A stretch of DNA of 64,000 bases from an uncultured delta proteobacterium (GCA_963792965.1 CAWBYW010000007.1:32001-96000); one strand, 5' to 3'; positions 18,547-42,032 are shown, numbered from the stretch's first letter. The notes: generated by a model not told the origin, from the letters alone. Translations and numbers: made by a program.

Positions 18547-19716
18547 ATGTCTATGACAGATTTTCTTTTTACGTCCGAATCGGTGACGGAAGGCCACCCC
18601 GATAAGGTTGCCGATCAGATCTCCGACGCCGTTCTCGACGCGATCATCAGCGAGGATAAAGATGCCCGGGTCGCGTGCGAAACCCTTGTAACCACCGGGC
18701 TTGCCATTATCGCCGGCGAGATCACCACAACCGCGTGGGCGGACATGCCGCAGATCGTCCGCAATACCATAAAAGAGATCGGGTACACGAACGCATCGAT
18801 GGGCTTTGACTGGGAGACCTGCGCCGTGCTGACCTCTATAGATAAGCAGTCGCCGGATATCTCCCAGGGCGTCACCCCCGGCAAAGGACTCCACAAAGAG
18901 CAGGGCGCGGGCGACCAGGGCCTCATGTTCGGGTTTGCGTGCGACGAGACGGCGGAGCTGATGCCGATGCCGATCGTCTATGCCCATAAGGTGTGCCGCA
19001 GGCTTGCCGAGGTCAGGAAGAACGGGATGCTCACGTTCCTCCGTCCCGACGGAAAATCTCAGGTAACGATTCAGTATATCGAGAATCAGCCGGTTCGGGT
19101 GGACGCCGTCGTTGTCGCCGCGCAGCATAATCCCGACGTGAAATACGAGACGCTGAGAGAGGCGATTATCGAGGAGGTCATCAAGAAGGTCATCCCAGAG
19201 CATTTGTTGGACAAGAAAACGAAGTTCTACGTCAATGAGACAGGGCGCTTCGTTATCGGGGGTCCGCAGGGTGACTGCGGGGTGACCGGACGCAAGATCA
19301 TCGTCGACACCTACGGGGGGCAGGGAAGCCACGGCGGCGGCTGCTTTTCGGGAAAAGATCCCTCCAAGGTGGACCGCTCCGGGTCCTATATGGCCCGCTA
19401 TGCGGCAAAAAATATCGTTGCCGCGGGGCTCGCCAGAAAGTGCGAACTCCAGGTGGCGTACGCCATCGGTAAGGCCGAGCCGGTTTCCTTTATGATCAAT
19501 ACCGAAGGGACGAGCGTCATCCCGCCCGACCATATCGCGAAGATCGTTCAGGAGGAGTTCGACTTTCGGCCGGCGGCCATGATCGAGAAGCTCGACCTCC
19601 TTAAGCCGAAGTATAAAAGAACGGCGGCCTACGGCCACTTCGGGCGTGAGGAGGCGGGCTTTACCTGGGAGGAAATCGACATGGCCAAGCGGCTGAAGAA
19701 GGCGGCGGGAATCTGA
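18547..19716 (+). CDS. metK: S-adenosylmethionine synthetase
   Basis: [64 protein letters not shown]. Confidence 0.97.
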
Positions 19717-19862: not shown

Positions 19863-21128
<1,266 letters not shown>

Positions 21129-21227: not shown

Positions 21228-22143
21228 ATGACGACCAAGAAGGGCGTTATCGCCGATCTCCTCCTTGTACTCATCTGCGTCTTTTGGGGGATGTCGTTTA
21301 TCATGGTGAAGCTCGCCATCAAGGAGCTTGACCTGTTCTGGTTTATTTTTCTCCGCTTTGCCCTCGCGGCGGCGGCGCTGCTGGTCGTTTTCGCCGGCCG
21401 GCTCAAAAGATACAACTGGCCGGTCTTCCGCGACGGATTCATCCTCGGGTCCGTCAACTTCATGACATTTTTTTTGCAGACAACCGGGCTCAAATTCACG
21501 TCGGCGTCCAATGCGGGGTTCATCACGGGGCTGCACGTGATCCTGGTCCCTTTCATCCTGGCGGTCTTTTTCAGGCGGATGCCGGCCGTCACCGCCACGA
21601 TCGGGGCGGTGCTGGCGGCCGTGGGGCTCTCGCTCATCACGGTCGGCGACGACCTCTCGATTAACAGGGGCGACATCTGGGTGCTCGCCTGTTCGGTCAG
21701 CGTGGCATTTCACGTGATCCTGACGGGGTGGTATGCGGTAAAGCACGATGTCTATCTGGTGGCGGTTACACAGCTCATCGCGATGACCTTCTGGGCGGGG
21801 TGCTCGGCCGCTGTACGTCGGCCATGCGCCGACGTCACTTTCCACGTACGTGATTATCGCGATCGTCTTTCTCGGGCTCGTTGCCACGGCCTTCAACTTC
21901 ACGGTGCAGACCTGGGCACAGCAGTACACCTCGCCGACGCGGGCGGCCGTGATTTTCACCACGGAGCCGGTCTTCTCGGCCTTCTTCGCCTGGTGGTGGG
22001 GCGGCGAGCTCCTCAAGAGCCGGGGCTACTTAGGTGCGGGATTGATTCTTGTGGGCATTATCCTTTCCGAGCTCAAATCCCGGGAGTGGCGGGAGGAGGA
22101 AAAGATCGTCGGAAAGGGGCCGAAGAAAGAGGAGAAGGGGTGA
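21228..22143 (+). CDS. EamA/DMT family transporter (frameshift near 21800-21850)
   Basis: FWGMSFIMVK, LQTTGLKFTSASNAGFITGL, GDIWVLAC; the second frame has QTWAQQYTSPTRAAVIFTTEPVFS. Confidence 0.85.
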
Positions 22144-22564
22144 CCAGGCGGGGCCGACGCCGCTCCGTCCAGAATCGAGCACCCTTTAGTATATCGTTTT
22201 GTAAGGAGCTCAGAGGGCTCCGTCATTTATCGAGCACCGTCACGATACGTGAGCCGGCCGGCCATCAGTAGCGCCCCTCCCTGAGTCGACAACATGGTAC
22301 TCCCAGCGCCCCTGCCGGAGCCCCCGTGCCTCTCCGCGAAACCGTTGTCATTATAGAAGGCCTCGGCTCTTTCAACGTCGCAACGGCCGCAACCGCCTCG
22401 ACGGCGCAGAGGTCGTCCTTTGAGAGCTGAATTTAGCGACGGCAAAGGTCATCTCTCATTAATCCTGCAGATACGTCGGATTTGTCGACGAGTTGGGCCG
22501 AAACGTCGGACGACTTTCAACGCTTTGGATACTACATGCCCGGGTATCGTATGTGAAGGATTGA

Positions 22565-24708: not shown

Positions 24709-24790
24709 GGGTTCCCCCCCCAATAAATGTGCTAAAATTATCCTACTTTTCGGTACTTGCTGTCAATATAAAACGTTTTCTAAGGGCCTG

Positions 24791-24808
24791 CTGTGATTTT
24801 ACTCACAG
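24791..24808. promoter_or_regulatory. CRP/FNR-family (CRP/HcpR-like) operator palindrome
   Basis: CTGTGA-TTTTAC-TCACAG, a perfect TGTGA-N6-TCACA, in a divergent intergenic region. Confidence 0.6.
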
Positions 24809-24893
24809 AGAAGGGGTAAAACGGGGCTTTTCGCGGGTCTGTTCGTCGATCGGTAGCGTCTTTTCCCAAGAAAACGGTTCATGTAGGGGGTTC

Positions 24894-27530
24894 ATGAAGG
24901 GGGAAAGGTCTTTCTTAGGCACGACCGTCAAGAGGGTCGCGCTCATATCCGCACTGGCCGCCTTCGTGGCATCAACGGCCACGGTCATCGTTTTCTTCTT
25001 TTCCTTTCGGGAAGAGCTGATCACGAACGCCGTGCGACGGATCGTGGAACAGACCGTCGGGTATCGGGTATCCCTTGTGGGGATACGACCCGTCTCGCTT
25101 AACGCGGTTTCCGTCGACGATATCGACCTTGTGCTCGGCTCTACCACCATTTCCTCGGGACCGACGGTACTGGGATTTCGACTCGGCATCAGCCCGCTCG
25201 TGTCCGTACGAAAGGTTTCGATGGAACATCCCTCTATCTCACTTGACCTGTCAAAAGAAGGAACGGGGAACGGTGCCGATATCATCAACCGCCTTATGCG
25301 GATGGACATCGATATCGCCGGGGGCGATCTCGCGATAATCGAAAAAGGGAAGCGCTATAGACTGGTCGGCCTCGATATGAGCTATACGCACGGCCTGTTC
25401 GGAAAAAAGCTTTCTCTGTCCGGGTCCGCGCGTACCGAGGGGAGCGCAGATGGAGCGATCCTCGGCGGGCCTTTTTGGGTCCAGATGCGCGTGACGGGCG
25501 ACTATCCGAAGATTACAGCGCGGGGAACGATAACGACGCGGCGATCGGGCTGGCGGATCGATAACTACCTTTTTTCGTGGGGGCAACTCGACGCCCGCGT
25601 CTCCCTTGATGAGGTTGGTCTGGAGGCGACCGATGCCAGGGTTACGGATTTTTCCTTGGTCGAGGAGAAGGTCGGCCTGAAGCTCGACGGAATCAGCGGC
25701 ACGGGCGCGATGAAAAACGAGAACAACGGCCCGTTCACCTTACGTGATGTGAGGCTTTCGGCACCTCGCCTCGGTGATGTCTCGCTTGACCTGATAGTCA
25801 ACGAGGACGGAAGATGGAAAGTGGGGGCGTCGTCCGATTCTCTCACGTTATCGTCCGAGAGTGTGCGGAGGCTGGGCCACTTCGTCCCTGATTTCTTTTA
25901 TGGCTGGGGAGCAAAGGGGAGGGTGCGCGGCGCGCTCACGATGGGAACCGTCGACACCGAGGATGGGAGTATCGCCGGAAACCTCGATGCGACCCTGATT
26001 GACGCCGGATTTTCCTCACCGGATTCGCTCTACCTCGGGGAAGGGGTTTCCGGGAATGTCGTGCTCCGGTTCAGAGATGACGTTAAGGGCGGATTTTCGT
26101 TCGAAGCCAACGCTGTCGCCCACGATTTCCAGCTCCTTCTGGCCGATTTCTTCATGAACTTCAAAGACACGAGGATTTCGGCATCACTGGAAGGAACGCT
26201 CGTCAATCCGGGAGAGGTGAAAGACCTTGACTGTGAGCTCGCGATCCCCAATGTCCTGTCGTCCCGTGTTGCGGGTGACATCGACTACAGCGGTGCGAAA
26301 ACGAGGGTGAACCTCACCTGCGCGGCGCGGGCGCTGGACTTAGGAAAGGCCTTTGACCTCTTCTTGAGGGAATTCTTCAGGAACCGCGCCCCGTCCCTCT
26401 ACACGGGGCAGATGATGGGGTCGCTCTCTTTTCGAGGAGCAATCGCGGGGGACCTGTCCGCGCCCAAAGTCAGCGGATATGCCGCGATCGAGGGCGCATC
26501 GATCGACCTTCCCGATATCGGTACAAAGATCGAAGGGCTCGAGGCCGCCGTCCCCTTTTCGGTCGACCTGTCGAGCTCGGTCCTGGGCGACACGTCCCCA
26601 CGGTTTGAGCCCCGCGACTTCGGCACGATCGCCTTTTCGCGCGCGGTCGTCGGGGGCGTGGAGATCGGGGAGACCGCATTTTCGCCCGCATTGGTAAACA
26701 ACGCCCTCTCCTTTAAGGATGAGGTAAGGCTTCCGATTTCCGGCGGCTCGATCAAGGTCGGAGGTTTTGCGGCCAAAGATATCTTTAACGAAAACAGGAC
26801 GGTGAGCCTCTCTCTCGATATTGAGGGTGTCGATATCGCCCGGATGTTCCCGAAGGAAAGGGCCGTCAATTTGGAGGGGGGGCTCTCCGGCAATCTCTCC
26901 GAGGTCAGGGTCGCGGACAAAAAACTGTTTACTTCGGGAGGGCTTACTGCTACAATATTTGGAGGGAAGGTGACGATAGGGAATATCTGGGGAGAAAACG
27001 TCTTTGACGCGGGAAGACGGCTCGGGTGTGACGTGGCGTTTTCAGACCTGGATCTGGGCATGCTGACTCAAACCATCGACGTGGGCAAGGTCACCGGGAT
27101 CGCGGAAGGACGGATAGCCGGCTTGACTTTCTCGTACGGGGAACCGGAGCGATTTGTGTTTGATTTCTCTACGGTCGAAAAACGAGGGGCAAGAAAGCGG
27201 GTCAGCGTCGATTTTGTCGATAAGCTCACCATCCTCGGGTCCGGATCGAGCCTCCTCTCGGGGGTTTTAGGAGGCGCCGTCAAGCGTTTCATTCATGAAT
27301 ATAACTATTCAAAGATCGGCATTCATCTCGAGCTTAAAGATGACTACTTCACGTTGAGGGGAACAATCCACGAGGGGAATAAAGAATATCTCATCAAACG
27401 CAGCGGCCTTACCGGTATCGACGTTATCAACCAGAATCCTGATAACAAGATCGGATTTAAAGATATGATGAAGAGGCTGGAGAGGATCAACGTGAAAAAC
27501 ACCAGTGATATCAGGATAGAAACACGCTAA
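24894..27530 (+). CDS. YdbH/AsmA-like inner-membrane-anchored beta-rich envelope protein
   Basis: One N-terminal TM (ALISALAAFVASTATVIVFFFSF), then about 850 aa of amphipathic beta strands. Immediately followed by a YnbE/YdbL-like gene. Confidence 0.7.
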   Translation: MKGERSFLGTTVKRVALISALAAFVASTATVIVFFFSFREELITNAVRRIVEQTVGYRVSLVGIRPVSLNAVSVDDIDLVLGSTTISSGPTVLGFRLGISPLVSVRKVSMEHPSISLDLSKEGTGNGADIINRLMRMDIDIAGGDLAIIEKGKRYRLVGLDMSYTHGLFGKKLSLSGSARTEGSADGAILGGPFWVQMRVTGDYPKITARGTITTRRSGWRIDNYLFSWGQLDARVSLDEVGLEATDARVTDFSLVEEKVGLKLDGISGTGAMKNENNGPFTLRDVRLSAPRLGDVSLDLIVNEDGRWKVGASSDSLTLSSESVRRLGHFVPDFFYGWGAKGRVRGALTMGTVDTEDGSIAGNLDATLIDAGFSSPDSLYLGEGVSGNVVLRFRDDVKGGFSFEANAVAHDFQLLLADFFMNFKDTRISASLEGTLVNPGEVKDLDCELAIPNVLSSRVAGDIDYSGAKTRVNLTCAARALDLGKAFDLFLREFFRNRAPSLYTGQMMGSLSFRGAIAGDLSAPKVSGYAAIEGASIDLPDIGTKIEGLEAAVPFSVDLSSSVLGDTSPRFEPRDFGTIAFSRAVVGGVEIGETAFSPALVNNALSFKDEVRLPISGGSIKVGGFAAKDIFNENRTVSLSLDIEGVDIARMFPKERAVNLEGGLSGNLSEVRVADKKLFTSGGLTATIFGGKVTIGNIWGENVFDAGRRLGCDVAFSDLDLGMLTQTIDVGKVTGIAEGRIAGLTFSYGEPERFVFDFSTVEKRGARKRVSVDFVDKLTILGSGSSLLSGVLGGAVKRFIHEYNYSKIGIHLELKDDYFTLRGTIHEGNKEYLIKRSGLTGIDVINQNPDNKIGFKDMMKRLERINVKNTSDIRIETR

Positions 27531-27551: not shown

Positions 27552-28133
27552 ATGATAAGGAGACTTGTACCGGCCACCGTTATTATGATTCTGCTGGTGA
27601 CGGCGTGCGTCACGGTGAACATATACTTCCCCGCCGAGGCGGTGAAGAAGGCGGCCGATGAGATCGTCAACGGCGTCTACGAAAAGGGAAAAGACAAGGG
27701 GAAAGATACAAAACCGGAGGGATCCCTGGAAGGGAGATATATGCTGGCCGGGATTTTCACCGACACCGCGTGGGCGCAGGTCGATATCAATATCTCCACG
27801 CCGGCCATCCGGGCAATCCGCTCCTCCATGGAAGCGCGCTTCGGCCAGCTCAGCCCCTACTATAACGGCGGCAACATCGGCATCACGAACCGGGGATATC
27901 TTGAGATCAGAAATCAGGCCGGCCTTGATATCGGGGCGGTGGGCAACCTCCGGGGCCTCGTGGACGCGGAGAACGGCGATCGGGCCAGGCTCTATCAGGA
28001 GATCGCGACGGCCAACAACCTGGGCTCGGCCTCTATCCCCCAGATCGAGCAGCTCTTTGCGCAGAGCTGGCAGAACCAGGCCGGCCCCGGCTGGTGGGTC
28101 CAGGGGGGCAACGGTTCCTGGGTAAAGAGGTAA
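27552..28133 (+). CDS. YnbE-YdbL (DUF1318)-like lipoprotein
   Basis: Lipobox LVTA-C, then VTVNIYFPAEAVKKAADEIV; C-terminal GNIGITNRGYL...VDAENGDRARLYQEIA...FAQSW...PGWWVQ...GSWVKR. Confidence 0.8.
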   Translation: MIRRLVPATVIMILLVTACVTVNIYFPAEAVKKAADEIVNGVYEKGKDKGKDTKPEGSLEGRYMLAGIFTDTAWAQVDINISTPAIRAIRSSMEARFGQLSPYYNGGNIGITNRGYLEIRNQAGLDIGAVGNLRGLVDAENGDRARLYQEIATANNLGSASIPQIEQLFAQSWQNQAGPGWWVQGGNGSWVKR

Positions 28134-28139
28134 TGAATA

Positions 28140-28358
28140 ATGCCCATATTTGAATTTGTCTGCGGCGGCTGCGGGCACGAGTTCGAGGAGCTGGTGATGT
28201 CCCGGAGCTCCGAAGTGGTCTGCCCGAAGTGTTCCTCAACAGAAGTAAACAAGCAGATGTCGGTCTGCGCGGTCAAGAGCAGCACGAAGTTCACTTCGAC
28301 CTCATCGGGCGCCGGCTGCGGAAGTTGCGGGTCGAAAAATTGCGGCAGCTGCCATTGA
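28140..28358 (+). CDS. FmdB family zinc-ribbon protein
   Basis: MPIFEFVCGGCGHEFEEL...CPKC, with a C-terminal CGSCGSKNCGSCH tail. Confidence 0.9.
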   Translation: MPIFEFVCGGCGHEFEELVMSRSSEVVCPKCSSTEVNKQMSVCAVKSSTKFTSTSSGAGCGSCGSKNCGSCH

Positions 28359-28380
28359 CGATACGTCAGGGAGGCCTGGG

Positions 28381-29880
28381 ATGATGAGTTTTAGAAAGGC
28401 TGTCTCCCTCCTTTTGTTCTTCCTCATCCTTTTCTCCGTCCCATCCTATCTGCGCGGCGAGGAAACAAAACGTCAGGGAAAGGTTCGAGAGCCCGCAGTG
28501 GCCGGCTCTTTCTATCCCTCGGACCCGAAAGAGCTCCGGTCGATGATCGAGGGATTCCTCTCGGAGGCGCCCCGGACCACGGTGCCCGGAAAAACCATCG
28601 CGATCGTCTCCCCCCACGCCGGCTATATCTACTCGGGGAAGACCGCCGCGGCGGGGTATAAGACGCTGGAGGGGCTCTCGTTTGATACCGTCATCGTGAT
28701 CGGACCGAGCCACCACTATGCCTTCGACGGGGCGGCGATCTACGCGGACGGACCGTACCGGACGCCGCTGGGCGACGTGCCGCTCGACACCGCGTTAATC
28801 GATGCAATCAAGAAGAGCGGCGAGGGGATCACGACCGACCCGGTCTTCCAGGAGACGGAGCACTCGGTCGAGGTCGAGATACCCTTCCTGCAGGTGGTGC
28901 TCGGGAATTTCAAGCTTGTCCCGATCGTGATGGGGAGCCGTAATTTGGCGGCGTGCGAGGATCTCGCACAGGCCATCGCCGGTGCCGTGGGGACTAAAAA
29001 GGTCCTGATCGTGGCGTCCTCGGACCTCTCGCACTACTATCCGAGGGATGTGGCGAAAAAGCTTGACGGGGTCTTCCGGAGTTTCCTGGCGAAAAACGAT
29101 CCTGACGGGATGTATGACTCGTTTGTCACGAAGAAGAGCGAGGCGTGCGGAGGCGGTCCCGTTGTGACGACACTCCTGGCTGCAAAGTCGCTCGGATCGA
29201 CGGGGGTCGTTGTGACAAAATACGATGACAGCGGGACTGAGACCGGAGACACCAGCGCCGTCGTCGGCTACATGTCGGCGGTCGTCTACGGGCGGGGAGG
29301 CCCGCCGGCGGGCGAGGGCGATACGGGCGGGGGACTGCTTTCCGCCGCCGAAAAGAAGAAGCTCTTGTCCATCGCGCGCACGAGCATCGAGTGCGGCCTC
29401 ACGGGGAAAGACTTCCCGAATTTCGGAGTAAGCTCTCCGGCGCTCAAGGAGATGGGGGCCGCATTCGTGACGCTGAAAAAGAACGGGGATCTCCGGGGAT
29501 GCATCGGCTATATAGAGCCGATACTTCCGCTCTGGGAGACGGTGAAGGAAGTCGCGGCGGAAGCGGCCTTCCATGATCAACGCGTTTCCCGGAAGCTGTC
29601 GAAAGATGAGCTCAAAGATATCACCATCGAGATCTCGGTACTGTCCAAGCTCAGCCGATCAAGAGCGTCGAACGAGATCGTCATCGGGAGAGACGGGGTG
29701 CAGATTCGCAAGGACGGCAGGTCAGGCATCTTTCTCCCCCAGGTGCCGGTCGAGCAGGGCTGGGGCCTGGACGAGTATCTCCAAAACCTCTGCGAAAAGG
29801 CCGGGCTCATGCCTAACGACTGGAAACAGAAGGATGCCCGGCTCTTTACTTTTACGGCGGACGTCTTCTCGGAGGAATAG
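28381..29880 (+). CDS. amrB: AmmeMemoRadiSam protein B (Memo-like) fused to protein A (AMMECR1-like), with an N-terminal signal peptide
   Basis: Memo motifs REPAVAGSFYP, PHAGYIYSG, GPSH, EHSVEV, ASSDLSHY, EACG, VVGY. AMMECR1 motifs GAAFVTL...LRGCIG, EISVLS, GIFLPQV, LCEKAG. Hydrophobic leader MSFRKAVSLLLFFLILFSVPSYLRG. Confidence 0.92.
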   Translation: MMSFRKAVSLLLFFLILFSVPSYLRGEETKRQGKVREPAVAGSFYPSDPKELRSMIEGFLSEAPRTTVPGKTIAIVSPHAGYIYSGKTAAAGYKTLEGLSFDTVIVIGPSHHYAFDGAAIYADGPYRTPLGDVPLDTALIDAIKKSGEGITTDPVFQETEHSVEVEIPFLQVVLGNFKLVPIVMGSRNLAACEDLAQAIAGAVGTKKVLIVASSDLSHYYPRDVAKKLDGVFRSFLAKNDPDGMYDSFVTKKSEACGGGPVVTTLLAAKSLGSTGVVVTKYDDSGTETGDTSAVVGYMSAVVYGRGGPPAGEGDTGGGLLSAAEKKKLLSIARTSIECGLTGKDFPNFGVSSPALKEMGAAFVTLKKNGDLRGCIGYIEPILPLWETVKEVAAEAAFHDQRVSRKLSKDELKDITIEISVLSKLSRSRASNEIVIGRDGVQIRKDGRSGIFLPQVPVEQGWGLDEYLQNLCEKAGLMPNDWKQKDARLFTFTADVFSEE

Positions 29881-29884
29881 CATC

Positions 29885-31099
29885 ATGAGTCGGGAAGGGA
29901 AATCCAAGGAAGAAACCGGAAAAAAGCGATTTTCCCGCAGGGCATTCCTGGGGACGGCGTCGGTCTGCGCCCTCGGCGTGTGCGCCGCGGGACTCCCGTC
30001 TTACGCCCGTGCGGAGGAAATCGGAAAGAGCCAAGATAACGATGAGATCGGCTACCCCGCGCGCGGATTCATGACGCCGAGGGAATCGCCCCTCTACATG
30101 CCGCTTGGCAATGGTGCGATCATGTGCCTCCTCTGCCCGCGGGGCTGCACCGTGGCGGAGGGAAAGCGCGGCCATTGCGAGGTGCGGGAGAACCGGAAAG
30201 GGAAATATTACAGCCTCGTATACGGCAACCCGTGCGCCATCCACGTGGACCCGATCGAGAAGAAGCCCTTTTTCCACCTGATACCCGCCACGACCTCCTT
30301 TTCCATAGCCACGGCCGGGTGCAACTTCGACTGTAAATTCTGCCAGAACTTCGATATCTCTCAGGCCGTCCCGGAGGATACCGACAACTATCGGCTAACC
30401 CCCGCTGCACTCGTCAAGGAGGCGAAATCCTCGGGATCGGCGTCGGTCGCCTATACCTACGTGGAGCCGACGATCTTCTACGAGTATATGCTCGACTGCG
30501 CAAAAGCCGTCAAGGCGGCGGGTCTCATCAACGTCATGCACTCAAACGGCTTCATCAACCCCGGGCCGAGGAAGGAGCTTGCCACGTACCTGACGGGCGT
30601 CAACATCGACCTCAAGGGGTTCACCGAGGATTACTATGCGTCGATGAGCGAGGGGAGGCTTGCCCCGGTGCTCGACTCGATCAAGGGGTACAAGAAGGCG
30701 GGGGTGCACGTAGAGCTCACGACGCTTGTCGTCCCCACGAAAAACGACGACATCGGGACTATTACCAAGATGTCAGAGTGGATCAGGGACGAGGTGGGCA
30801 AGGAGACGCCGCTCCACTTTTCGAGGTTCATCCCCCTGTATAAGCTCAGGAATCTGCCGGACACCCCCGTGGAGACGCTGGAGGCGGCGCACGACGCTGC
30901 GAAAAAGGCCGGCCTTGAGTACGTCTATATCGGCAACGTACCGGGCCATAAGTACGAATCCACCTACTGCCCGAAATGCAAGGAGATCCTCATCTACCGC
31001 ATGGGCTACTTCGTCGGCGAGGTAAAGATCAAGAACGGGAAGTGCAAATTCTGCGGCTACCCGATCGCGGGGATCTGGCAGCTGCCGAAGTCGGCGTGA
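29885..31099 (+). CDS. amrS: AmmeMemoRadiSam radical SAM enzyme with a twin-arginine leader
   Basis: CLLCPRGC...GHCEVREN, VDPIEKKPFFH, GCNFDCKFCQN (CX3CX2C), AYTYVEP, NIDLK, PLHFSRF, YVYIGN, CPKC..CKFC. Leader SRRAFLG...ARA. GGAGG SD before ATG 29885. Confidence 0.93.
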   Translation: MSREGKSKEETGKKRFSRRAFLGTASVCALGVCAAGLPSYARAEEIGKSQDNDEIGYPARGFMTPRESPLYMPLGNGAIMCLLCPRGCTVAEGKRGHCEVRENRKGKYYSLVYGNPCAIHVDPIEKKPFFHLIPATTSFSIATAGCNFDCKFCQNFDISQAVPEDTDNYRLTPAALVKEAKSSGSASVAYTYVEPTIFYEYMLDCAKAVKAAGLINVMHSNGFINPGPRKELATYLTGVNIDLKGFTEDYYASMSEGRLAPVLDSIKGYKKAGVHVELTTLVVPTKNDDIGTITKMSEWIRDEVGKETPLHFSRFIPLYKLRNLPDTPVETLEAAHDAAKKAGLEYVYIGNVPGHKYESTYCPKCKEILIYRMGYFVGEVKIKNGKCKFCGYPIAGIWQLPKSA

Positions 31100-31215
31100 C
31101 GCGGCAGCCGGGATTGCCGCCACGATCAGGAATATCTGGCTTCTTTCCTTGGGGACCCCCGACGTTTCCCGGCCGTCCGTATCGAGCCCTCAAACGACTT
31201 CATAGAACAATAATC

Positions 31216-33510
31216 TCACGCTCTCTGCTTTATCCGCATCGCCCCAATCCCTGTGGCCGCGGCCGCGCAGAGGTTTGCGGCGCATACCAACAGCACCGTT
31301 GCCACAAGACCGAAGATGGGAATCATGACGACCGAGGCCGTCAGTGCGCCGATCGATGCCCCCAATAGGTTGGTGCCGTAGACAAGCCCGCCTGACGACT
31401 CCGCCGAAAACCCGGACCAAGAAAGGGCGCGAGACGCCGTCACGAAGTGAAAGCCACACAGAATCCCGCAGAGCATATTCAGGAAAGAAAAGAAGAGATC
31501 GAGCCCGCTCACCAGCCCCGCCGGCGCGTACGTCGAGAAGAAATAGAGGACGGCGATAATCAGAAGGCTCAGGGCGGCGTAAAGGAGCTGGATGACGACG
31601 AGCGTCCGCCACGGCCGGCGTATGCGGTCGACGGCTCTGCGCGCGGCGGCCGTCCCCGCAAAAAGCCCGACCATGAAGGCGCTCACGATCAGCCCAAGGC
31701 TGAAGTAGACGTATCCGTAGAAGGTCTGGAAGGCGATAATAATGACGACCTCAAGTGAGATCTCTGAAAGGCCCGAGGTCAGGGCCGCCGGGGCGAGCGT
31801 CATGAAGGAGGACAATCCGGCCCTGCGGCGGACAAGGCCGAGCGCGCCGATATAGCAGGTCGTGATAAGCAAGAGCGTAACGCCGGGCCACGCCGGTTTA
31901 AGGCTCGAGAGCCGGCCGAGAAGGATCTTAGTCCCCGGTGAAAGCGAGAAGCTCCAGAGGATCATGTCGTAGAGGTAGGAGATCGGCGCGAGGTCCGTAT
32001 TGAGACGGTTACCGGAGGCGTTGTTGATGCTGTCGTTGACATATTTGATTCTTTCTGGGCTGAGCTTATAGGGGAGGTAATACTCCGTGACGTAGCTATT
32101 GATGATCTTTCGCGCTTTCATGCGTGCGATGAGGAGGGCGGGATCGACAGTGATTCGTCCCGGGTCGGCCGATGCCAGAAAATATGCCGTTTCCCCGGGG
32201 ACAACCGCCGTGTGGGGGAAGACAGCGCCGAGCGTGAGCGCGATGCTCCTCAGAAACGAGGCCAACGCCGGACTGATGATCTCCTCCGAGGAGCCGACCG
32301 AGATCGAAAAGACGCCCCCGGGCGACAGCACCCTTCTTGTCTCCATGAAGAACTCGCGGGTGAAGTACCGGTTGATGCGGGCGCTGACGGGATCGGCCAT
32401 GTTCACGATGATGACGTCGTAGCGCTCGTCGGTCTTCTTAATAAAGAGGCGTCCGTCCGTGTGGATGACGCGAACACGTTTATCCCCGAGGGGCCTGACC
32501 GCCTCCGGGGGCAGGCGCCTCTTGCCGAGGTCGACGAGGGACGGATCGAGCTCAACGTAATCGACGCGCGCAACCGAGGGGTGCTTGAGTATCTGGGTCA
32601 GGGTCGAAGAGATCCCTCCACCGACCAGCAGCACGCGCACGGGCCTCGGATGCATCAGCATGGGGTAGATGACCCGCTCCTCCGTGGTCATCAGATCGGG
32701 GTAGGTAAACGAGAGAACCCCGTTGTCGTAAAAGGTGATCTGGCTTTGGGCTTTCGTCACGGTGATGTTGCCATAGATCGAGTCGATGGACTCGAGAATC
32801 GAAAAGTCCTTCCACTGAAACCGCCGCGTCATCTCTTCGATGTCGGGGACGGGGGATAAGAGCTGGGTGAGAAAAAAGACCGAAACCACCGCAGAAAAGA
32901 GAATAGTAATGCCTCGTCGGTCGATCACCGAGAAGAAAAATGCCGCGCAGGACAGAAATAAGGCGATAATCCATGATATGGACAGTGCATCGAAGTATCG
33001 GATGAGGACGAGGCTCGTGATAATGCCGCCGACCGACGAGCCGATGGATTCCATCAGATAGATTGTGGCCGGCCGTGTGCCTGATCCTTCCTCTTTTGTA
33101 TCGGCGGCCGCCGCGCGGATGAACAACGGGAACAGGCACCCCGAGAGGAGACAGAAGGGCATGAGGACTACACCGACGACGAGGATCATAGCGCCCATCC
33201 CGACGATCTCACCCTGCGATATCCCCATGAGGCCCTTACTGATGCGGGCAAGCGCAACGGTCAGCGGGAGCAGGAGACCGAGGATGAGGAGGAATATTGG
33301 GAGGGCACGGGGGCGGACAGGGGCCTTCCCGGCGATGACGGTGCCGAGGTAGCCGCCGGCCGCCGTCCACAGGAGCCATGTCAAAAGGCAGATACCCGTG
33401 GAGAGCTCGTTGCCATAAAAGAGGACCATGATCTCCCGCATGAGGATGATCTGGCCGGCAATTGATGCGACCCCGAGCATGATCGCACCGCTGTGTGCGC
33501 GTTGGTTCAT
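31216..33510 (-). CDS. Polytopic fused MFS-like/spermidine-synthase-fold protein
   Basis: About 7 TM, then a Rossmann SAM domain ([39 protein letters not shown]), then about 7 TM that echo the first bundle. Confidence 0.85.
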
Positions 33511-33700
33511 TGAGCTCTCTCAGGTTTTTTTATTGTATCATGGATTGATGAAGGGCCGGGGAAAAACATCCGGCCGATGGGGAGAAGATCAACAATTACC
33601 CTTGCAAAAAAGGACAGAATATGATAACTATTCACCTTTAAGCGGAACAGCGGGCCGAAGGCCGGCAGAGAGTACGAGTGACGGAGAAGACAGATCGACG

Positions 33701-36196
33701 ATGAAAAAATATGAACCGGCCGCCTTAGAGGCGCGGTGGCAGAAATACTGGGAAGATAAGAAAGTATTCAGGTCCTTAGAGGACCCGAAGAAAGAGAAAT
33801 ACTACGTGCTGGAGATGTTTCCCTACCCTTCAGGTCGGATTCACATGGGGCACGTGCGCAATTACAGCATCACGGACCTGGTCGCCCGCTACAAGATGAT
33901 GCGGGGCTATAACGTGTTGCACCCCATGGGGTGGGACGCCTTCGGGATGCCCGCGGAAAACGCCGCCATCCAGAAGGGGATGCACCCCGCCGCCTTTACC
34001 TACGAAAACATCGACTACATGAAAAAGCAGCTCAAGGCGATGGGCTTTTCGTACGACTGGGACCGCGAGCTTGCGACCTGCGACCCTGAATATTACCGGT
34101 GGGAACAGTGGCTCTTCCTCAAGATGCTCGAGGCGGGGCTCGCCTATCAGAAGAAATCCTTCGTCAACTGGTGCAATGTCTGCCAGACGGTGCTCGCCAA
34201 CGAGCAGGTCATCTCAGGCCGGTGCTGGCGGTGCGACAACGAGGTGACCCAGCGGGAGATCAGGGGCTGGTTCTTCAAGATCACGGAATACGCCGAGGAC
34301 CTTCTGGAGTACCTGGAACGGCTACCCGGCTGGCCCGAGCGGGTCCTCACCATGCAGAGAAACTGGATCGGCAAGAGCTTTGGTGCCGAGATCAGGTTCC
34401 CGCTGAAAGACAAGGAGGGTTTCATCCCGGTCTTCACGACGCGTCAGGACACCGTCTTCGGGGCGACCTTTATGGTGCTGGCCCCGGAGCATCCGCTCAC
34501 CATCGAGCTGTCGCGGGGGACCCCCGAGGAGAAGAAGGTTGACGCCTTCGTCGACCGGATGCTCAAGACCGACAAGATCAAGCGCTCGTCGGAGGACTAC
34601 GAAAAGGAAGGCGTCTTCGTCGGGGCTTACTGCAAAAACCCCTTCACCGGGCGCGAGATGCCGGTCTTTGCGGCGAACTTCGCCCTCATGGAGTACGGCA
34701 CGGGGGCCGTCATGGCCGTCCCGGCCCACGACGAGAGGGACTTCGAATTTGCTAAGAAATACAGCCTGCCCGTCATCGTCGTCATCACACCTGAAGAAAA
34801 GGCACTCGTCGCCGAAAAGATGAACGAGGCTTACGTCGAAGACGGGATCCTCGTCAACTCCGGCCCCTTTGACGGAATGCGGAACCGCGCCGCCATGGAC
34901 GCTATTATCGACGAGCTTGAAAAGCGGGGACTCGGGAAACGTACGGTCAACTATCGGCTGCGAGACTGGGGGATTTCCCGCCAACGCTACTGGGGGGCGC
35001 CGATCCCCATCGTCTACTGCGAGAAATGCGGCGTTGTGCCGGTACCGGAAGCGGATCTGCCGGTGCTCTTGCCGCTCGACGTTCAGGTCACGGGGCAGGG
35101 GGGATCGCCCCTGGAGCAGTACGAGCCGTTCGTGAAGACCCAGTGCCCGATATGCAAGGAGCCCGCGCGGCGCGAGACCGATACGATGGACACCTTCGTC
35201 GAATCGTCGTGGTACTACGCCCGGTACTCCTGTCCGGACTATGATAAGGGGATGGTCGAAAAGAAACGGGTCGACTACTGGCTTCCCGTGGACCAGTATA
35301 TCGGGGGCATCGAGCACGCGATCCTGCATCTCCTCTACTCCCGGTTCTACAGCCGCATCATGGAGCGCTTCGGTCTGGTTACGTATAAAGAGCCGTTCAC
35401 CCGGCTCCTCACCCAGGGCATGGTGATCAAGGAAGGGGCCAAGATGAGCAAGTCGAAGGGAAACGTCGTCGACCCGGACGATATGGTGAAAAAGTACGGG
35501 GCCGATACGACGCGTCTCTTCATGCTCTTTGCGTCGCCTCCCGAAAAAGAGCTCGAGTGGAGCGATCAGGGGATAGATGGATCGTACCGATTCCTCGGCC
35601 GACTCTGGCGGATCATCGCCGACAACATGACGCTTATCGGTAAGGTCAAGGGGCCCTCCGGAGACGGGAGGGTGGGGATGACCGATCGGGGGATCAGGTT
35701 GCGCCGTAAAACACACCAGACCATCAGAAAGGTGACGGAAGACATCGAGGAGCGCTTTCATTTCAATACCGCCATCGCCGCCGTCATGGAGCTCGTCAAC
35801 GAGATGTATGCCTTTACCGCCGACACACAACCGATCGGTGGTGCGGACGCGGCCGTATTCAAAGAGGCGGCCGAGGCCGCCGTGCTGTTGCTTTCTCCCG
35901 CGGTCCCCCACATCTCTGAGGAACTATGGGAGATACTCGGCCACCGTCCCTCGATCGTCAGGGAAAAATGGCCGACGTTCGACGAACGACTTGCGAAAGA
36001 GGACGAGATCACCATCGTCGTGCAGGTCAACGGCAAGGTGCGCGGCAGGCTGCTCGTCGGGGCACAGACTCCGGATGACGAGATCAAACAGCAGGCGCTG
36101 GCCGACGAGAAGGTGATGGGATTTATCGAGGGAAAGGATATCCAGAAGGTGGTGGTTGTGCCCAAGAAGCTCGTGAATATCGTGGTGGCCAAGTAA
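33701..36196 (+). CDS. leuS: Leucine--tRNA ligase
   Basis: [13 protein letters not shown] (HIGH), [45 protein letters not shown]. Confidence 0.97.
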
Positions 36197-40511: not shown

Positions 40512-42032
40512 ATGTTCAGAAAGGCGCTGCTTGATCCGAATACCTTCTGTGTCAACTGGGAGCTGATCCCCGGAAGGGGCTCCCGTGAGCGGCAGCAGGA
40601 AGAGGTGATGCGGTTTGCCGAAGCGGCCGCCCGGTCAAAAAAGATCCACGGCATCGGGCTGACCGATAACCCGGGGGGGGGACCCGCCATCTCGGCGGAG
40701 TTTATGGCGGCCGAGATCGTAAAGCTCGGCATCGAGCCCCTCGTTCACTTTGCCTGCCGCGATAAAAACCGCACTGAGCTGGAAAGCATGCTCTACGCCC
40801 TGTCACGGTGCGAGGCCGATAATCTGCTCATCCTTTCGGGCGACTATCCGACGGACGGGGGCTTCGGGGTCGCGAGGCCCGTCTTTGACGTCGACCCCGT
40901 CCACGTGCTGACATTAACCCGGCGGATGAACGCGGGGCTCGCCTATCAATACATGGGCAAGACGCTCACCCTCCCGCCGACCGACTTCTTCTGTGGGGCG
41001 GCAGTCTCCCCATTCAAGAGCACCGAGGCGGAGCTGATGGGACAGTACTGGAAATTGAAGAAGAAAATCGACGCGGGCGCACGCTTCGTTGTTACCCAGG
41101 TCGGCTACGATGCCCGCAAGCTTCATGAGCTCCTGACCTGGTTGAAAACCGGTGGATACGATATCCCGGTGCTCGCAAATATCTTTGTGCTCACCTATCC
41201 CGCCGCCAAGGCGATGCGCGAGGGGAGGGTGCCGGGCTGCGTGGTGACAGCCCGGTTGCTTTCGATGATCGAGGGAGAGAGGAATGCGCCGGATAAGGGG
41301 AGGGCGGCGCGCCTCACGAGGGCCGCCAAACAGTATGCGATCGCCAAGGGCATGGGATGCGCCGGGGCGCACATCGGGGGACACGGGGTAAACCCGGAGA
41401 TGGTGCTCGAGGTCATCGAGCATGGAGAGGAGCTTTCCCGCGATTGGGAGCGGTACGCAGGAGAATTCGACTTTCCTCAGGCGGGCGGTTTCTATTTCTT
41501 TACGAGGAATAATCGGAGCGGCTTGAACACCGACACGCCGTCCGTGAGGAATCAGAGGCCCGTCTATCCCCCCGGTTACTATTTCTCCCGGGCGGTCCAT
41601 CTCGCCCTTTTCGAGAGGAGGAGCCCGCTTTTCTTTTTGATGCGCCTGGGCGCAAAGGCCGTCGATTCGTCGAGGATCCTCACGGGCATTTTTGCGACGC
41701 TTGAAAACATTACGAAGGTGCTCCTCTACGAATGCCAGAACTGCGGTGACTGCGCCCTCTTCGACTGCGCCTATCTCTGCCCCATGTCGCAGTGCCCCAA
41801 GGGGCAGCGCAACGGGCCCTGCGGAGGCTCGTCGGAGGGATGGTGCGAGGTCTATCCGGGCGAGAAGAAATGCATCTGGGTGAGGGGATACCTAAGGCTC
41901 AAAGGGACGGGCAGCGAGGGTTCCATGGCGGACAATTACGTCCCCCCCTGCGACTGGGCGCTCTGGCGTACGTCGTCGTGGCTCAACTATTTCCTGGGCC
42001 GTGACCATCTCGGCAAGAAGATCGCCGGATAG
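40512..42032 (+). CDS. metF: Methylenetetrahydrofolate reductase fused to a C-terminal MetV-like Cys-rich domain
   Basis: TDNPGG, HFACRDKN, LSGDYP, KKKIDAGARFVVTQVGYD; C-terminal CQNCGDC...CPMSQCPK..RNGPCGGS..GWCEV...CIW. Confidence 0.85.
   Translation: MFRKALLDPNTFCVNWELIPGRGSRERQQEEVMRFAEAAARSKKIHGIGLTDNPGGGPAISAEFMAAEIVKLGIEPLVHFACRDKNRTELESMLYALSRCEADNLLILSGDYPTDGGFGVARPVFDVDPVHVLTLTRRMNAGLAYQYMGKTLTLPPTDFFCGAAVSPFKSTEAELMGQYWKLKKKIDAGARFVVTQVGYDARKLHELLTWLKTGGYDIPVLANIFVLTYPAAKAMREGRVPGCVVTARLLSMIEGERNAPDKGRAARLTRAAKQYAIAKGMGCAGAHIGGHGVNPEMVLEVIEHGEELSRDWERYAGEFDFPQAGGFYFFTRNNRSGLNTDTPSVRNQRPVYPPGYYFSRAVHLALFERRSPLFFLMRLGAKAVDSSRILTGIFATLENITKVLLYECQNCGDCALFDCAYLCPMSQCPKGQRNGPCGGSSEGWCEVYPGEKKCIWVRGYLRLKGTGSEGSMADNYVPPCDWALWRTSSWLNYFLGRDHLGKKIAG

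Follow-up and report, generated by a model that had tools for sequence, protein, structure and literature searches.

A candidate periplasm-facing AmmeMemoRadiSam system with a fused MFS/spermidine-synthase-like membrane protein in an uncultured delta proteobacterium

The AmmeMemoRadiSam system comprises the AmrA, AmrB and AmrS families (TIGR04335, TIGR04336 and TIGR04337), and to our knowledge its function has not been established. As far as we know, all radical SAM enzymes reported to date work in the cytoplasm, and we know of neither SAM nor a low-potential reductant in the periplasm. In the literature, we found no report of a radical SAM enzyme outside the cytoplasm and no paper on an exported AmrS system. 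Fe-S proteins exported by the twin-arginine (Tat) route include hydrogenase small subunits, NrfC and reductive dehalogenases. In spermidine synthases, selection of decarboxylated SAM depends on the acid in GGG[D/E]G, and the first Asp of D-x-x-D-P is catalytic. No paper was found on the fused MFS/spermidine synthase family (NF037959).

The window, i.e. the whole stretch of DNA analysed, is 64,000 nucleotides long and comes from an uncultured delta proteobacterium (GCA_963792965.1 CAWBYW010000007.1:32001-96000). It contains the following features:

28381..29880, plus strand: amrBA, encoding an AmrB-AmrA fusion of 499 aa
28381..28458, plus strand: predicted Sec-type signal peptide of AmrB-AmrA, 26 residues
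29885..31099, plus strand: amrS, encoding an AmmeMemoRadiSam-type radical SAM enzyme of 404 aa
29885..30013, plus strand: predicted Tat signal of AmrS, 43 residues, with the motif S-R-R-A-F-L-G and the end A-R-A
31216..33510, minus strand: gene for a 764-aa membrane protein (here MEM), convergent to amrS and matching NF037959

The three reading frames lie where the earlier note had placed them. By computed family membership, residues 36-302 of the amrBA product are AmrB (TIGR04336, 269.9 bits against a cut-off of 26; Memo-like) and residues 327-496 are AmrA (TIGR04335, 163.1 bits against 99; AMMECR1-like); PF01875 and PF01871 also match. AmrS scored 347.9 bits with TIGR04337 (cut-off 220), the match beginning at about residue 74, and is matched by PF04055; its next-best profiles were YjjW activase, PflA and NrdG. 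The cluster motif CNFDCKFC (CX3CX2C) is intact, with C146, C150 and C153 invariant in the alignment of 14 homologues. Eight further Cys residues are invariant among these 14 leader-bearing sequences.

The N-terminus of the fusion protein is MMSFRKAVSLLLFFLILFSVPSYLRG, and its ATG is preceded by GGGAGG. The n-region carries R5 and K6 and is followed by a 14-residue hydrophobic core, with a predicted cut after LRG. The Sec-like character proposed in the earlier note holds for this leader, which has two Met residues and not one as was given there. For amrS, the listed reading frame (29573-31099) is open upstream; the start taken is the ATG at 29885, which has GGAGG 8 nt before it and lies only 4 nt after the amrBA stop. 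The AmrS leader runs from FSRRAFLG through TASVCALGVCAAGLP to SYARA; its core is moderately hydrophobic, and its c-region holds a basic residue. The consensus, the mild core and the A-x-A end are all present, and the leader reads as a typical twin-arginine signal, as had been proposed. The hydrophobic maximum (Kyte-Doolittle, best 10-residue window) is Sec-like in AmrB-AmrA (3.25) and Tat-like in AmrS (2.18), given a median of 1.94 (range 1.25-2.67) in the Tat class and of 3.2 (range 2.8-3.7) in the Sec/TM class, these classes being defined by our own rules (motif, core hydrophobicity and A-x-A end). A tatC gene (TIGR00945, 223.6 bits) is located on another contig of the same genome (G000:C9:214939-215661).

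The leaders are conserved features. Each of the AmrS homologues listed, 120 in number at 55-100% identity and with the protein of the window counted in, has an N-terminal extension, which is beyond chance, and the leader pair is RR in 91 and KR in 29. At 80 related loci from many phyla, classified by a script with 10 calls then corrected by hand, the AmrS leader was of Tat type in 54, of Sec/TM type in 17 and absent in 9. The 17 Sec-like or anchor-like leaders complicate the export reading, as they fit poorly with an Fe-S enzyme, which they would export unfolded. The AmrB-type neighbours bear a Sec or lipoprotein leader at 36 of 38 related loci, the remaining two being interrupted by the contig end, and several AmrB-AmrA partners have lipoboxes. 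Stand-alone AmrA genes at three loci (L011, L015 and L039) are without a leader, which complicates the export reading. With leaders conserved on both AmrS and AmrB-AmrA, a start-codon artefact, named in the earlier note as a way in which its reading could fail, is not borne out.

The computed tree of 142 AmrS cores (FastTree) shows that leader-bearing AmrS forms a distinct clade. A single split (support 78) separates all 103 leader-bearing and 10 leaderless proteins from 29 leaderless ones, and the leader state changes 4 times on the tree, compared with a mean of 34 (minimum 28) for shuffled labels. Besides its exported AmrS, the window's genome encodes two leaderless AmrS paralogues elsewhere.

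The membrane protein encoded opposite amrS is organised as follows:

32926..33510, minus strand: first MFS half of MEM, helices 1-6, residues 1-195, N-terminus predicted cytoplasmic
31894..32847, minus strand: central domain, residues 222-539, spermidine-synthase fold, predicted to face the periplasm and predicted AmrS docking site
31216..31893, minus strand: helix 8 and second MFS half (helices 9-14), residues 540-764 and stop, C-terminus predicted cytoplasmic

MEM scored 63.2 bits with the NF037959 model 'fused MFS/spermidine synthase' (cut-off 40). In Pfam, at E up to 0.001, only PF01564 was matched (residues 282-404) and no MFS model. The AlphaFold model (pLDDT 86.4, pTM 0.88) has a 7 + 7 helix layout, in which a 12-helix MFS fold of two 6-helix halves holds an insertion of helix 7, the spermidine-synthase-like domain and helix 8; this agrees with the earlier description of a SAM-fold domain between two membrane bundles. 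The halves proved homologous to each other in hhalign (probability 99.0%, E 6.7e-18; 0.1% in controls against the central domain). The model aligned with the DHA1 exporter SotB over 359 of 366 residues (Z 29.0, rmsd 3.9) and with VMAT2 (Z 28.7), VAChT (Z 28.3) and many further MFS chains, and the label 'MFS-like' used in the earlier note now has structural backing in this model.

The computed charge topology supports an outward-facing central domain. Over 25 homologues, the mean K+R content of the loops assigned to the inside is 2.2, 2.3, 2.3 and 2.0 before the domain and 3.0, 3.6, 2.6 and 1.5 after it, and that of the alternate loops is 0.1, 1.0, 0.0, 0.0, 0.6 and 0.0. This clean alternation and the 7 + 7 helix model favour the orientation predicted earlier, which depends on helices 7 and 8, where confidence in the model is lowest (pLDDT 53-70) but which are the most hydrophobic segments of the alignment.

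Exported AmrS/AmrB-AmrA and MEM co-occur at three levels, as the earlier note had anticipated, with the reservation that related genomes are not independent, so that all the counts given here overstate the statistical weight. In the neighbourhood, MEM stands beside AmrS at 54 of the 112 exported-clade loci and at none of the 28 loci of the other clade, often abutting AmrS on the same strand at related loci, and where Tat-type loci extend at least 5 kb to both sides, it is present in 20 of 25. In the window's genome, the one MEM adjoins the exported AmrS and none is near the two leaderless paralogues. At the genome level, MEM occurs in all 11 verified Tat-AmrS genomes among G001-G100 (background 44/101), and at least two AmrS copies were counted by hand in 39 of 43 MEM-positive and 10 of 57 MEM-negative genomes. 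In the family to which the window belongs, five genomes have exported AmrS together with MEM, and three lack the two.

Modelling of the complex also links the two proteins. Mature AmrS was placed on the MEM domain with an ipSAE of 0.68 (0.66-0.69 in three runs), the best of three controls reaching 0.17; 116 of 157 solved complexes come up to the pass mark, as do 2 of 215 mismatched pairs, counts that hold only roughly because our own alignments were used. At least 83% of contacts agree between the runs, and the partner pLDDT is at least 83. These computed models support docking of AmrS on the MEM domain.

We suggest the following scheme for the system. The AmrB-AmrA fusion would leave the cytoplasm unfolded via Sec, and AmrS would receive its Fe-S clusters in the cytoplasm and then be exported in folded form via Tat. 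At the outer face of the cytoplasmic membrane, AmrS would dock on the outward domain of MEM. MEM itself may be an MFS transporter shaped like a cation exporter (DHA1/VMAT-like), with a degenerate spermidine-synthase domain inserted. Its substrate would be SAM or some other adenosyl compound, moved across the membrane and then kept next to AmrS by the inserted domain, an arrangement that could make reductive SAM cleavage possible outside the cytoplasm. Finally, AmrS and AmrB-AmrA would modify an envelope substrate; its 'non-nucleic-acid' nature, proposed in the earlier note, follows solely from the extracytoplasmic location.

Actual export, transport of SAM, the source of electrons and the substrate are inferred in this scheme, the parts of which are not equally firm. 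It is quite probable that the AmrBA/AmrS/MEM module is extracytoplasmic, and fairly likely that MEM is a physical partner of AmrS. On balance, we lean slightly towards the combined reading, in which we are dealing with an AmmeMemoRadiSam variant that faces the periplasm, MEM carrying SAM or an adenosyl compound to AmrS. Taken separately, SAM delivery is a tentative assignment for MEM. Somewhat more doubtful, though possible, is a self-contained outer-face machine, in which MEM would be a dedicated SAM exporter whose domain hands SAM to docked, Tat-exported AmrS, and AmrS and the Memo-AMMECR1 protein would modify an envelope lipid, glycan or protein. If true, radical SAM chemistry outside the cytoplasm would be seen here for the first time, and a first handle on the role of the Memo/AMMECR1 families would be gained.

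The central domain of MEM consists of an N-terminal beta domain and a Rossmann domain; its closest solved relative is Thermus thermophilus SpeE (1uir/3anx, profile E 1.2e-41), and the TM-score against 1uir, normalised to the target, is 0.75 (Z 31.2). Among 25 homologues, the adenosine-binding residues are kept at E320 (21/25), D352 (25/25) and D365 (25/25). Position 300 is an acid (D or E) in none of the 25, the window having GGGISS where Thermus SpeE has GGGEG. At position 370, 17 of the 25 have N and 2 have D, the window having N370 (VNMADP) where Thermus SpeE has DLTDP. Both acids by which aminopropyltransferases are defined, that of GGG[D/E]G and the first Asp of D-x-x-D-P, are missing from MEM, and its scores fall well short of the speE equivalog cut-offs (TIGR00417, 95.1 against 249.55; PRK00811, 109.8 against 260; PRK03612, 164.8 against 472).

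An extracytoplasmic module in which MEM is no SAM conduit may be considered. The outward domain would then be a group-transfer enzyme that uses an exported adenosyl donor on a lipid or envelope polymer, or MEM would be a membrane scaffold or the protein substrate of a PFL-activase-like AmrS. This reading agrees with the resemblance of AmrS to activating enzymes that act on protein substrates (YjjW activase, PflA and NrdG). Also, the predicted AmrS interface includes residues 154-167, directly behind C146/C150/C153, where a substrate is expected, and on MEM the interface (residues 252-274, 406-417 and 472-497) avoids the nucleotide-pocket residues. In addition, MEM frequently stands alone, since 33 of the 48 MEM loci in the window's phylum lack an AmrS within 7 kb. 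That MEM is not restricted to the AmrS system, that only 9 of 31 Tat-AmrS loci of this phylum have MEM within 8 kb and that one genome (G085, 97% complete) has MEM with a single, leaderless AmrS also weigh against the preferred scheme, as does the position of the interface on MEM. However, the group-transfer variant meets the missing catalytic residues at positions 300 and 370, the membrane part, a full MFS fold built from two homologous halves, goes far beyond the needs of an anchor, and SAM would still have to be available outside for any SAM-dependent enzyme that faces outward. We consider this explanation rather unlikely, and SAM or adenosyl transport by MEM is kept in the preferred scheme.

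The 10 leaderless AmrS proteins inside the exported clade, whose partners bear leaders, complicate the export reading: nine of them adjoin exported AmrB/A or MEM, and modification before export fits them equally well as the main explanation. According to this alternative, the radical SAM step is cytoplasmic and draws on cytoplasmic SAM and reductant, its target being, for instance, AmrS itself, a cofactor bound to AmrS or AmrB-AmrA in its unfolded state; folded AmrS would then be exported solely for a structural or carrier role. SAM and electrons would no longer be required in the periplasm. An analogy is provided by anaerobic sulfatase-maturating enzymes, whose action precedes export by Sec. 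However, the conserved association with a transporter that bears an outward SAM-type domain and the predicted AmrS-MEM docking would be left unexplained. The same is true for the membrane redox genes beside Sec/TM-type AmrS, a gene of DsbD_2 or NosR/NapH type being present at 15 of these 17 loci. Furthermore, the Tat leader is kept at 54 of 80 and at 31 of 60 sampled loci, and a cytoplasm-only enzyme needs none. Purely pre-export chemistry is, in our opinion, distinctly unlikely.

Finally, a membrane-tethered but otherwise ordinary AmmeMemoRadiSam set, with N-termini that are anchors or start artefacts and a cytoplasmic MEM domain, would agree with the cytoplasmic location of radical SAM enzymes described so far, the low model confidence of helices 7 and 8 and leader classes defined by our own rules, yet it is highly improbable in view of the Shine-Dalgarno sequences before both leader-including starts, the conservation of leader class across phyla, the lipoboxes on several AmrB-AmrA partners, the leader charges on the N-side, the K+R alternation that places the MEM domain outside and the DsbD_2-type genes, passing reducing power outward, that accompany the Sec/TM-type class.

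In the preferred extracytoplasmic scheme, AmrS would need electrons as well as SAM. No obvious electron conduit was seen beside the AmrS cluster in the window, which counts against the scheme. At 16 loci, Tat-type AmrS is directly preceded by a DUF362 gene, and a Tat leader was read on one example. As for SAM metabolism, metK (18547-19716), an N-terminal piece of ahcY (19863-20666) and an MTHFR-like gene (40512-42032) are present near the cluster, as had been noted. The functional hint that was seen in them did not hold: no metK/ahcY/metF-type gene is among the 25 neighbour clusters listed for the 80 related loci or among the 16 listed for 48 MEM loci, and metK and ahcY seem to be close by through coincidence.

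When compared with the models for fused MFS/spermidine synthase (NF037959) and for membrane-bound polyamine aminopropyltransferase (PRK03612), MEM shares the spermidine-synthase fold and passes NF037959. It differs in falling far below the speE equivalog cut-offs, in lacking the two motif acids and in having its domain between two MFS halves, predicted to face outward. With DHA1 exporters and vesicular amine transporters (SotB 6kki, VMAT2 9kqa, VAChT 8zmr and NorA), it has in common the 12-helix fold of two homologous halves (Z 26.8-29.0 over 353-359 aligned residues, identity only 10-13%), and a common fold does not show a common function. Unlike these transporters, MEM has two extra helices and a 318-residue domain, predicted outward, in the position of the cytoplasmic loop. 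AmrS resembles Tat-exported Fe-S proteins in its S-R-R-x-F-L motif, mild core, A-x-A end and many invariant Cys residues, whereas its cargo part is a radical SAM enzyme, which would need SAM as co-substrate after export. As in the AmmeMemoRadiSam system, the three families score above the curated cut-offs, their genes are adjacent and the radical SAM motif is intact. In contrast to that system, every product here carries a predicted export signal, AmrB and AmrA are fused, and AmrS groups in a clade apart, which has a genomic link to an MFS/spermidine-synthase-like membrane protein.

The three genes take up window positions 28381-33510 and are arranged as follows.

28381-29880, + strand: amrBA, an AmrB-AmrA fusion of 499 aa (TIGR04336, TIGR04335, PF01875, PF01871)
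ATG at 29885, in a frame open from 29573, + strand: amrS, 404 aa (TIGR04337, PF04055)
31216-33510, - strand: MEM, a membrane protein of 764 aa convergent on amrS (NF037959; PF01564 at residues 282-404)

The fusion consists of a Memo-like AmrB part (residues 36-302; TIGR04336, 269.9 bits; PF01875 match) and an AMMECR1-like AmrA part (residues 327-496; TIGR04335, 163.1 bits; PF01871 match). Its N-terminus reads MMSFRKAVSLLLFFLILFSVPSYLRG, and GGGAGG lies upstream of the start. AmrS, the radical SAM enzyme, reached 347.9 bits against TIGR04337 (cut-off 220) and also matched PF04055. The TIGR04337 match starts at about residue 74, and the residues ahead of it include ...KKRFSRRAFLGTASVCALGVCAAGLPSYARA. 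The amrS start codon stands 4 nt from the amrBA stop, with GGAGG 8 nt upstream. Based on the most hydrophobic 10-residue window (Kyte-Doolittle), the AmrB-AmrA leader reads as Sec-like (3.25), and the AmrS leader reads as the milder sort expected of a Tat signal (2.18). The tatC gene was found in the genome. A promoter and terminator scan of window positions 28100-33750 gave nothing useful.

Directly upstream of amrBA lie genes for a 933-aa protein (24729-27530) and a 193-aa protein (27552-28133), the latter having a hydrophobic stretch at its N-terminus. No NCBIfam model matched either of them at E up to 1e-25, and both are missing from the recurrent neighbours listed for related loci. The same genome also encodes two AmrS paralogues and an AmrB, all three leaderless, as well as a stand-alone AmrA lacking a long N-terminal extension, and no MEM was found near any of them. 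It should be noted that one of these AmrS paralogues (G000:C7:227952-228924) and the leaderless AmrB (G000:C5:71769-72559) are spread over two frames, by frameshift or assembly error.

The leaders recur among homologues. All of the 120 best AmrS homologues in a protein collection (the window's own included; 55-100% identity, 373-435 aa) carry an N-terminal extension with a hydrophobic stretch, with RR in 91, typically as SRRxFLK, and KR in 29, for example TKREFLK. The twin-arginine leader that the earlier note had read on AmrS is upheld by its hydrophobic maximum, by the GGAGG before the ATG and by these RR/KR motifs; the Sec-like leader claimed for AmrB-AmrA agrees with its own maximum and with the GGGAGG before the leader-including start. 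In addition, one genome per species was scanned with an alignment of 14 of these 120 AmrS proteins. At least 600 stretches matched, and the best 80 loci were kept, from Thermodesulfobacteriota, Omnitrophota, Bacteroidota, Planctomycetota, Acidobacteriota, KSB1, Ignavibacteriota, Latescibacterota, some archaea and others. Stop-to-stop reading frames were called in them and searched with pieces of the window's proteins. Leaders were classed by a script under our own rules, with 10 corrections by hand (to Tat: L015, L022, L037, L039, L044, L065; to none: L048, L058; to Sec/TM: L029, L067).

Leader classes of AmrS in the best 80 loci
Tat-type: 54 loci
Sec-like or anchor-like (Sec/TM), very hydrophobic and without a Tat motif: 17 loci
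None: 9 loci

Hydrophobic maxima set the classes apart, with a median of 1.94 (1.25-2.67) for Tat and 3.2 (2.8-3.7) for Sec/TM. An AmrB-type gene was present in 38 of the best 80 loci, and 36 of these carry a Sec or lipoprotein leader, the other two being cut by a contig end. Several have a lipobox, e.g., LVPGC in L013 and PLGC in L026; in L027, another AmrB, 5.4 kb off, has no leader. A leader is absent from three stand-alone AmrA proteins that adjoin Tat-type AmrS (L011:458-1138, L015:96-752, L039:12602-13168), which could be co-exported with AmrS via Tat as signal-less partners.

A FastTree phylogeny was built from 142 AmrS cores, comprising the best 80 loci, 60 control loci, the AmrS of the window and one of the two leaderless paralogues in its genome; the other, which is frameshifted, was left out. 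One split (support 78) places 103 leader-bearing and 10 leaderless proteins on one side and 29 leaderless proteins on the other. This tree requires 4 changes between the exported and the leaderless state; with shuffled labels the number averaged 34 and was never below 28. The exported proteins group together as a clade. Its 10 leaderless members (L026, L032, L048, L059, L072, L083, L094, L095, L097, L098) adjoin an exported AmrB/A or MEM in all cases except L048; their leader may have been lost, or they may leave the cytoplasm together with a partner or do their work prior to export.

MEM accompanies this clade. Among the best 80 AmrS loci, many of them on short contigs, a MEM-like gene was present at 33/54 Tat-type, 8/17 Sec/TM-type and 3/9 leaderless loci. 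Of the 25 Tat-type loci with 5 kb or more to either side, 20 have MEM and 17 have AmrB-AmrA. The genes often abut on the same strand in varying order (L071, L085, L087, L079, L069). The control loci came from a TIGR04337 search of 301 genomes of the window's phylum, including that of the window itself, of which 284 were positive; 60 were chosen from the 150 matches listed by open-frame length as the sole criterion, and 8 kb was fetched on each side. MEM lay within 8 kb of 9 of the 31 Tat-type AmrS genes and AmrB/A adjoined 10; for the 29 leaderless genes the counts were one (L098, where a lipoprotein AmrB-AmrA is also encoded) and 4. By clade, AmrS has MEM as a neighbour at 54/112 exported-clade loci versus 0/28 of the other clade.

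Of 101 genomes of the phylum searched with a MEM profile, 44 have the gene, in one or two copies each; the window's genome has one. Among 48 MEM loci from the phylum (7 kb flanks), 15 contained AmrS (14 Tat-type, 1 leaderless) and 33 did not, which makes the adjacency frequent but not obligatory. No recurrent neighbour of those 33 loci appeared among the clusters listed. All 11 genomes with a verified Tat-type AmrS (among G001-G100) have MEM, in 7 of them not within 8 kb of the fetched Tat-AmrS locus. By a hand count, at least two AmrS copies occur in 39/43 MEM-positive versus 10/57 MEM-negative genomes; G085, which has MEM and a single, leaderless AmrS, is an exception. Within the window's own family, exported AmrS and MEM are both present in five genomes (G000, G054, G125, G157, G247), in G157 as fragments at contig ends. 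In G012, G091 and G217 (99, 93 and 88% complete), two leaderless AmrS types alone were found and MEM is absent. We give no p-values, since related genomes are not independent. The cross-genome check set out in the earlier note came out in its favour, with exported AmrS, exported AmrB/A and MEM co-occurring at the neighbourhood, genome and family levels.

The leuS gene (window 33710-36196) adjoins MEM here, and the 48 MEM loci include 5 with the same arrangement (L156 and four others), 4 of them with no AmrS nearby. It is probably a conserved local gene order without functional meaning. A meaning had also been sought in the nearness of metK, ahcY and metF. These genes are present in the window, but none is among the 25 neighbour clusters listed for the 80 AmrS loci or the 16 listed for the 48 MEM loci, and we rejected the link as coincidence. 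The ahcY reading frame (window 19863-20666 and 21228-22271) matches positions 1-139 of the 416-position model only and appears split or frameshifted; the break may be an assembly error, the genome being 89% complete.

Further candidate partners were found at other loci. Tat-type AmrS is directly preceded by a DUF362 gene (PF04015), often with an overlap, in 16 of the best 80 loci (L025, L034, L035, L039, L041, L046, L047, L050, L051, L055, L056, L065, L073, L074, L076, L089). A Tat leader was read on one example (L047), and on its sequence DUF362 is a second kind of putatively exported partner. The Sec/TM-type AmrS (L013, L017, L018, L020, L027-L030, L033, L036, L038, L042, L045, L067, L080-L082), mainly from Omnitrophota, Elusimicrobia and Planctomycetota, are accompanied by a DsbD_2/CcdA-like membrane redox gene at 15 of 17 loci, versus 1/54 Tat-type and 1/9 leaderless loci; part of this link may come from shared ancestry. 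According to Pfam searches of eight representatives of these partners, the redox protein is found either by itself or as a fusion with FMN_bind and Fer4_5, a NosR/NapH-like arrangement. DsbD_2/CcdA-like proteins send reducing power outward, which fits an outside location of AmrS. The loading of Fe-S clusters into an AmrS with a Sec-type leader is not accounted for by the export reading. Neither a DUF362 nor a DsbD_2-type partner is present in the window.

MEM matched NF037959, "fused MFS/spermidine synthase", with 63.2 bits (cut-off 40) and scored far under all speE equivalog cut-offs. In its AlphaFold model (25 homologues; pLDDT 86.4, pTM 0.88), seven helices are followed by a mixed alpha/beta domain and another seven helices. 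The central domain is predicted to have a spermidine-synthase fold (1uir, target-normalised TM-score 0.75, Z 31.2), and its profile matches SpeE of Thermus thermophilus (E ~1e-41). The modelled membrane part resembles SotB (Z 29.0, 359/366 residues, rmsd 3.9), VMAT2 (Z 28.7), VAChT (Z 28.3) and NorA (Z 26.8), values far in excess of the chance level for helical bundles (Z ~13). Homology links helices 1-6 with helices 9-14 (hhalign probability 99.0%, E 6.7e-18, 181 columns), against 0.1% for each half compared with the central domain as a control. No Pfam MFS family matched at E up to 0.001, and Foldseek against the PDB gave spermidine synthases alone among the matches listed; the MFS fold came from a broader structure search. 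Taken together, the fold match and the homologous halves make MEM a 6 + 6 MFS protein, as its description as "MFS-like" had anticipated, in which, according to the model, helix 7, a 318-residue domain and helix 8 stand in place of the usual cytoplasmic linker.

Averaged across the 25 homologues, the inside-assigned loops have K+R counts of 2.2, 2.3, 2.3 and 2.0 before the domain and 3.0, 3.6, 2.6 and 1.5 after it, and the alternate loops have 0.1, 1.0, 0.0, 0.0, 0.6 and 0.0. Under the positive-inside rule, this alternation would place the central domain outside; together with the 7 + 7 helix model, it supports the earlier claim of an outward-facing domain between two membrane bundles. In the model, the placement hinges on helices 7 and 8, which have its lowest confidence (pLDDT 53-70) yet are the most hydrophobic segments of the alignment.

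The glycine-rich loop of the synthases (GGGEG in Thermus SpeE) is retained in MEM, but position 300, its acid (E in Thermus SpeE), is acidic in none of the 25 homologues. E320 is retained in 21/25 homologues, and D352 and D365 each in 25/25. Position 370, the first Asp of D-x-x-D-P (DLTDP in Thermus SpeE), is N in 17/25 and D in 2/25. The retained residues are, we assume, those holding the adenosine part in spermidine-synthase structures, and the lost ones presumably those responsible for choosing decarboxylated SAM and for activating the amine acceptor. This loss implies that MEM is not a canonical aminopropyltransferase. Judging from these residues, the domain may bind an adenosyl compound, possibly SAM itself, against which nothing in MEM speaks. 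At the end of the domain, an N-x-D-x-x-P motif (residues 504-509; window 31984-32001, - strand) is invariant in 25/25 homologues and in the alignment pairs with TDQNP close to the C-terminal end of Thermus SpeE.

A complex of mature AmrS (residues 45-404) and the MEM domain (222-539), each with an alignment, was predicted with a score of 0.68 (0.66-0.69 in three runs), against 0.17 for the best of 3 controls. The pass mark is reached by 116/157 solved complexes and 2/215 mismatched pairs, counts that hold only roughly here because our own alignments were used. The runs agreed in at least 83% of contacts, with a partner pLDDT of at least 83. A pass by memorisation seems unlikely, as no solved structure pairing these two folds is known to us. 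The prediction supports binding of AmrS to the MEM domain. Binding would require the two to share a compartment; the Tat leader on AmrS and the orientation that the charges give for MEM, two independent lines, point the same way. The predicted interface comprises residues 117-123, 154-167 and 316-331 of AmrS and 252-274, 406-417 and 472-497 of MEM. In the model, AmrS residues 154-167 follow directly on the cluster motif and the MEM side lies clear of the nucleotide pocket; from this geometry, it is possible that MEM is a substrate or scaffold of AmrS.

The above results are most simply accounted for by an AmmeMemoRadiSam module that is located outside the cytoplasm and has MEM as its partner in the membrane. 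As to the role of MEM, we tentatively favour, as a possibility short of probable, that it would supply SAM to the exported AmrS. An exported radical SAM enzyme needs SAM, MEM is shaped like a cation exporter, and its predicted outward domain resembles a SAM holder whose catalysis has been lost.

Radical SAM enzymes need SAM and a low-potential electron and, to our knowledge, are regarded as strictly cytoplasmic. A large AmrS clade that spans many phyla, bears export signals and is accompanied by exported proteins and by a transporter with an outward SAM-type domain would, if real, overturn this assumption and imply SAM export. The Memo and AMMECR1 families, with the human members MEMO1 and AMMECR1, have no established function that we know of. 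An envelope-located version narrows the candidate substrates, and a membrane complex of AmrS and MEM, which is testable, would offer a way into the function of both families.

Searches of titles and abstracts found nothing on exported, periplasmic or secreted radical SAM enzymes, although Burroughs et al. 2019, reportedly the key comparative study of Memo-AMMECR1 systems, was outside their scope and may bear on this or already cover secreted forms. Likewise, titles and abstracts held nothing relevant on SAM export to the periplasm by an MFS exporter and no paper about AmmeMemoRadiSam by name; a search for literature on the MEM-type MFS/spermidine synthase family found none. AMMECR1, radical SAM and Memo were mentioned together in one passing sentence of a single paper, and a passage of PMC10924467 is unrelated to exported radical SAM enzymes.

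For annotation, "spermidine synthase" is the wrong name for MEM-type proteins: MEM and spermidine synthase have the fold in common, but MEM is without the residues that define the activity.
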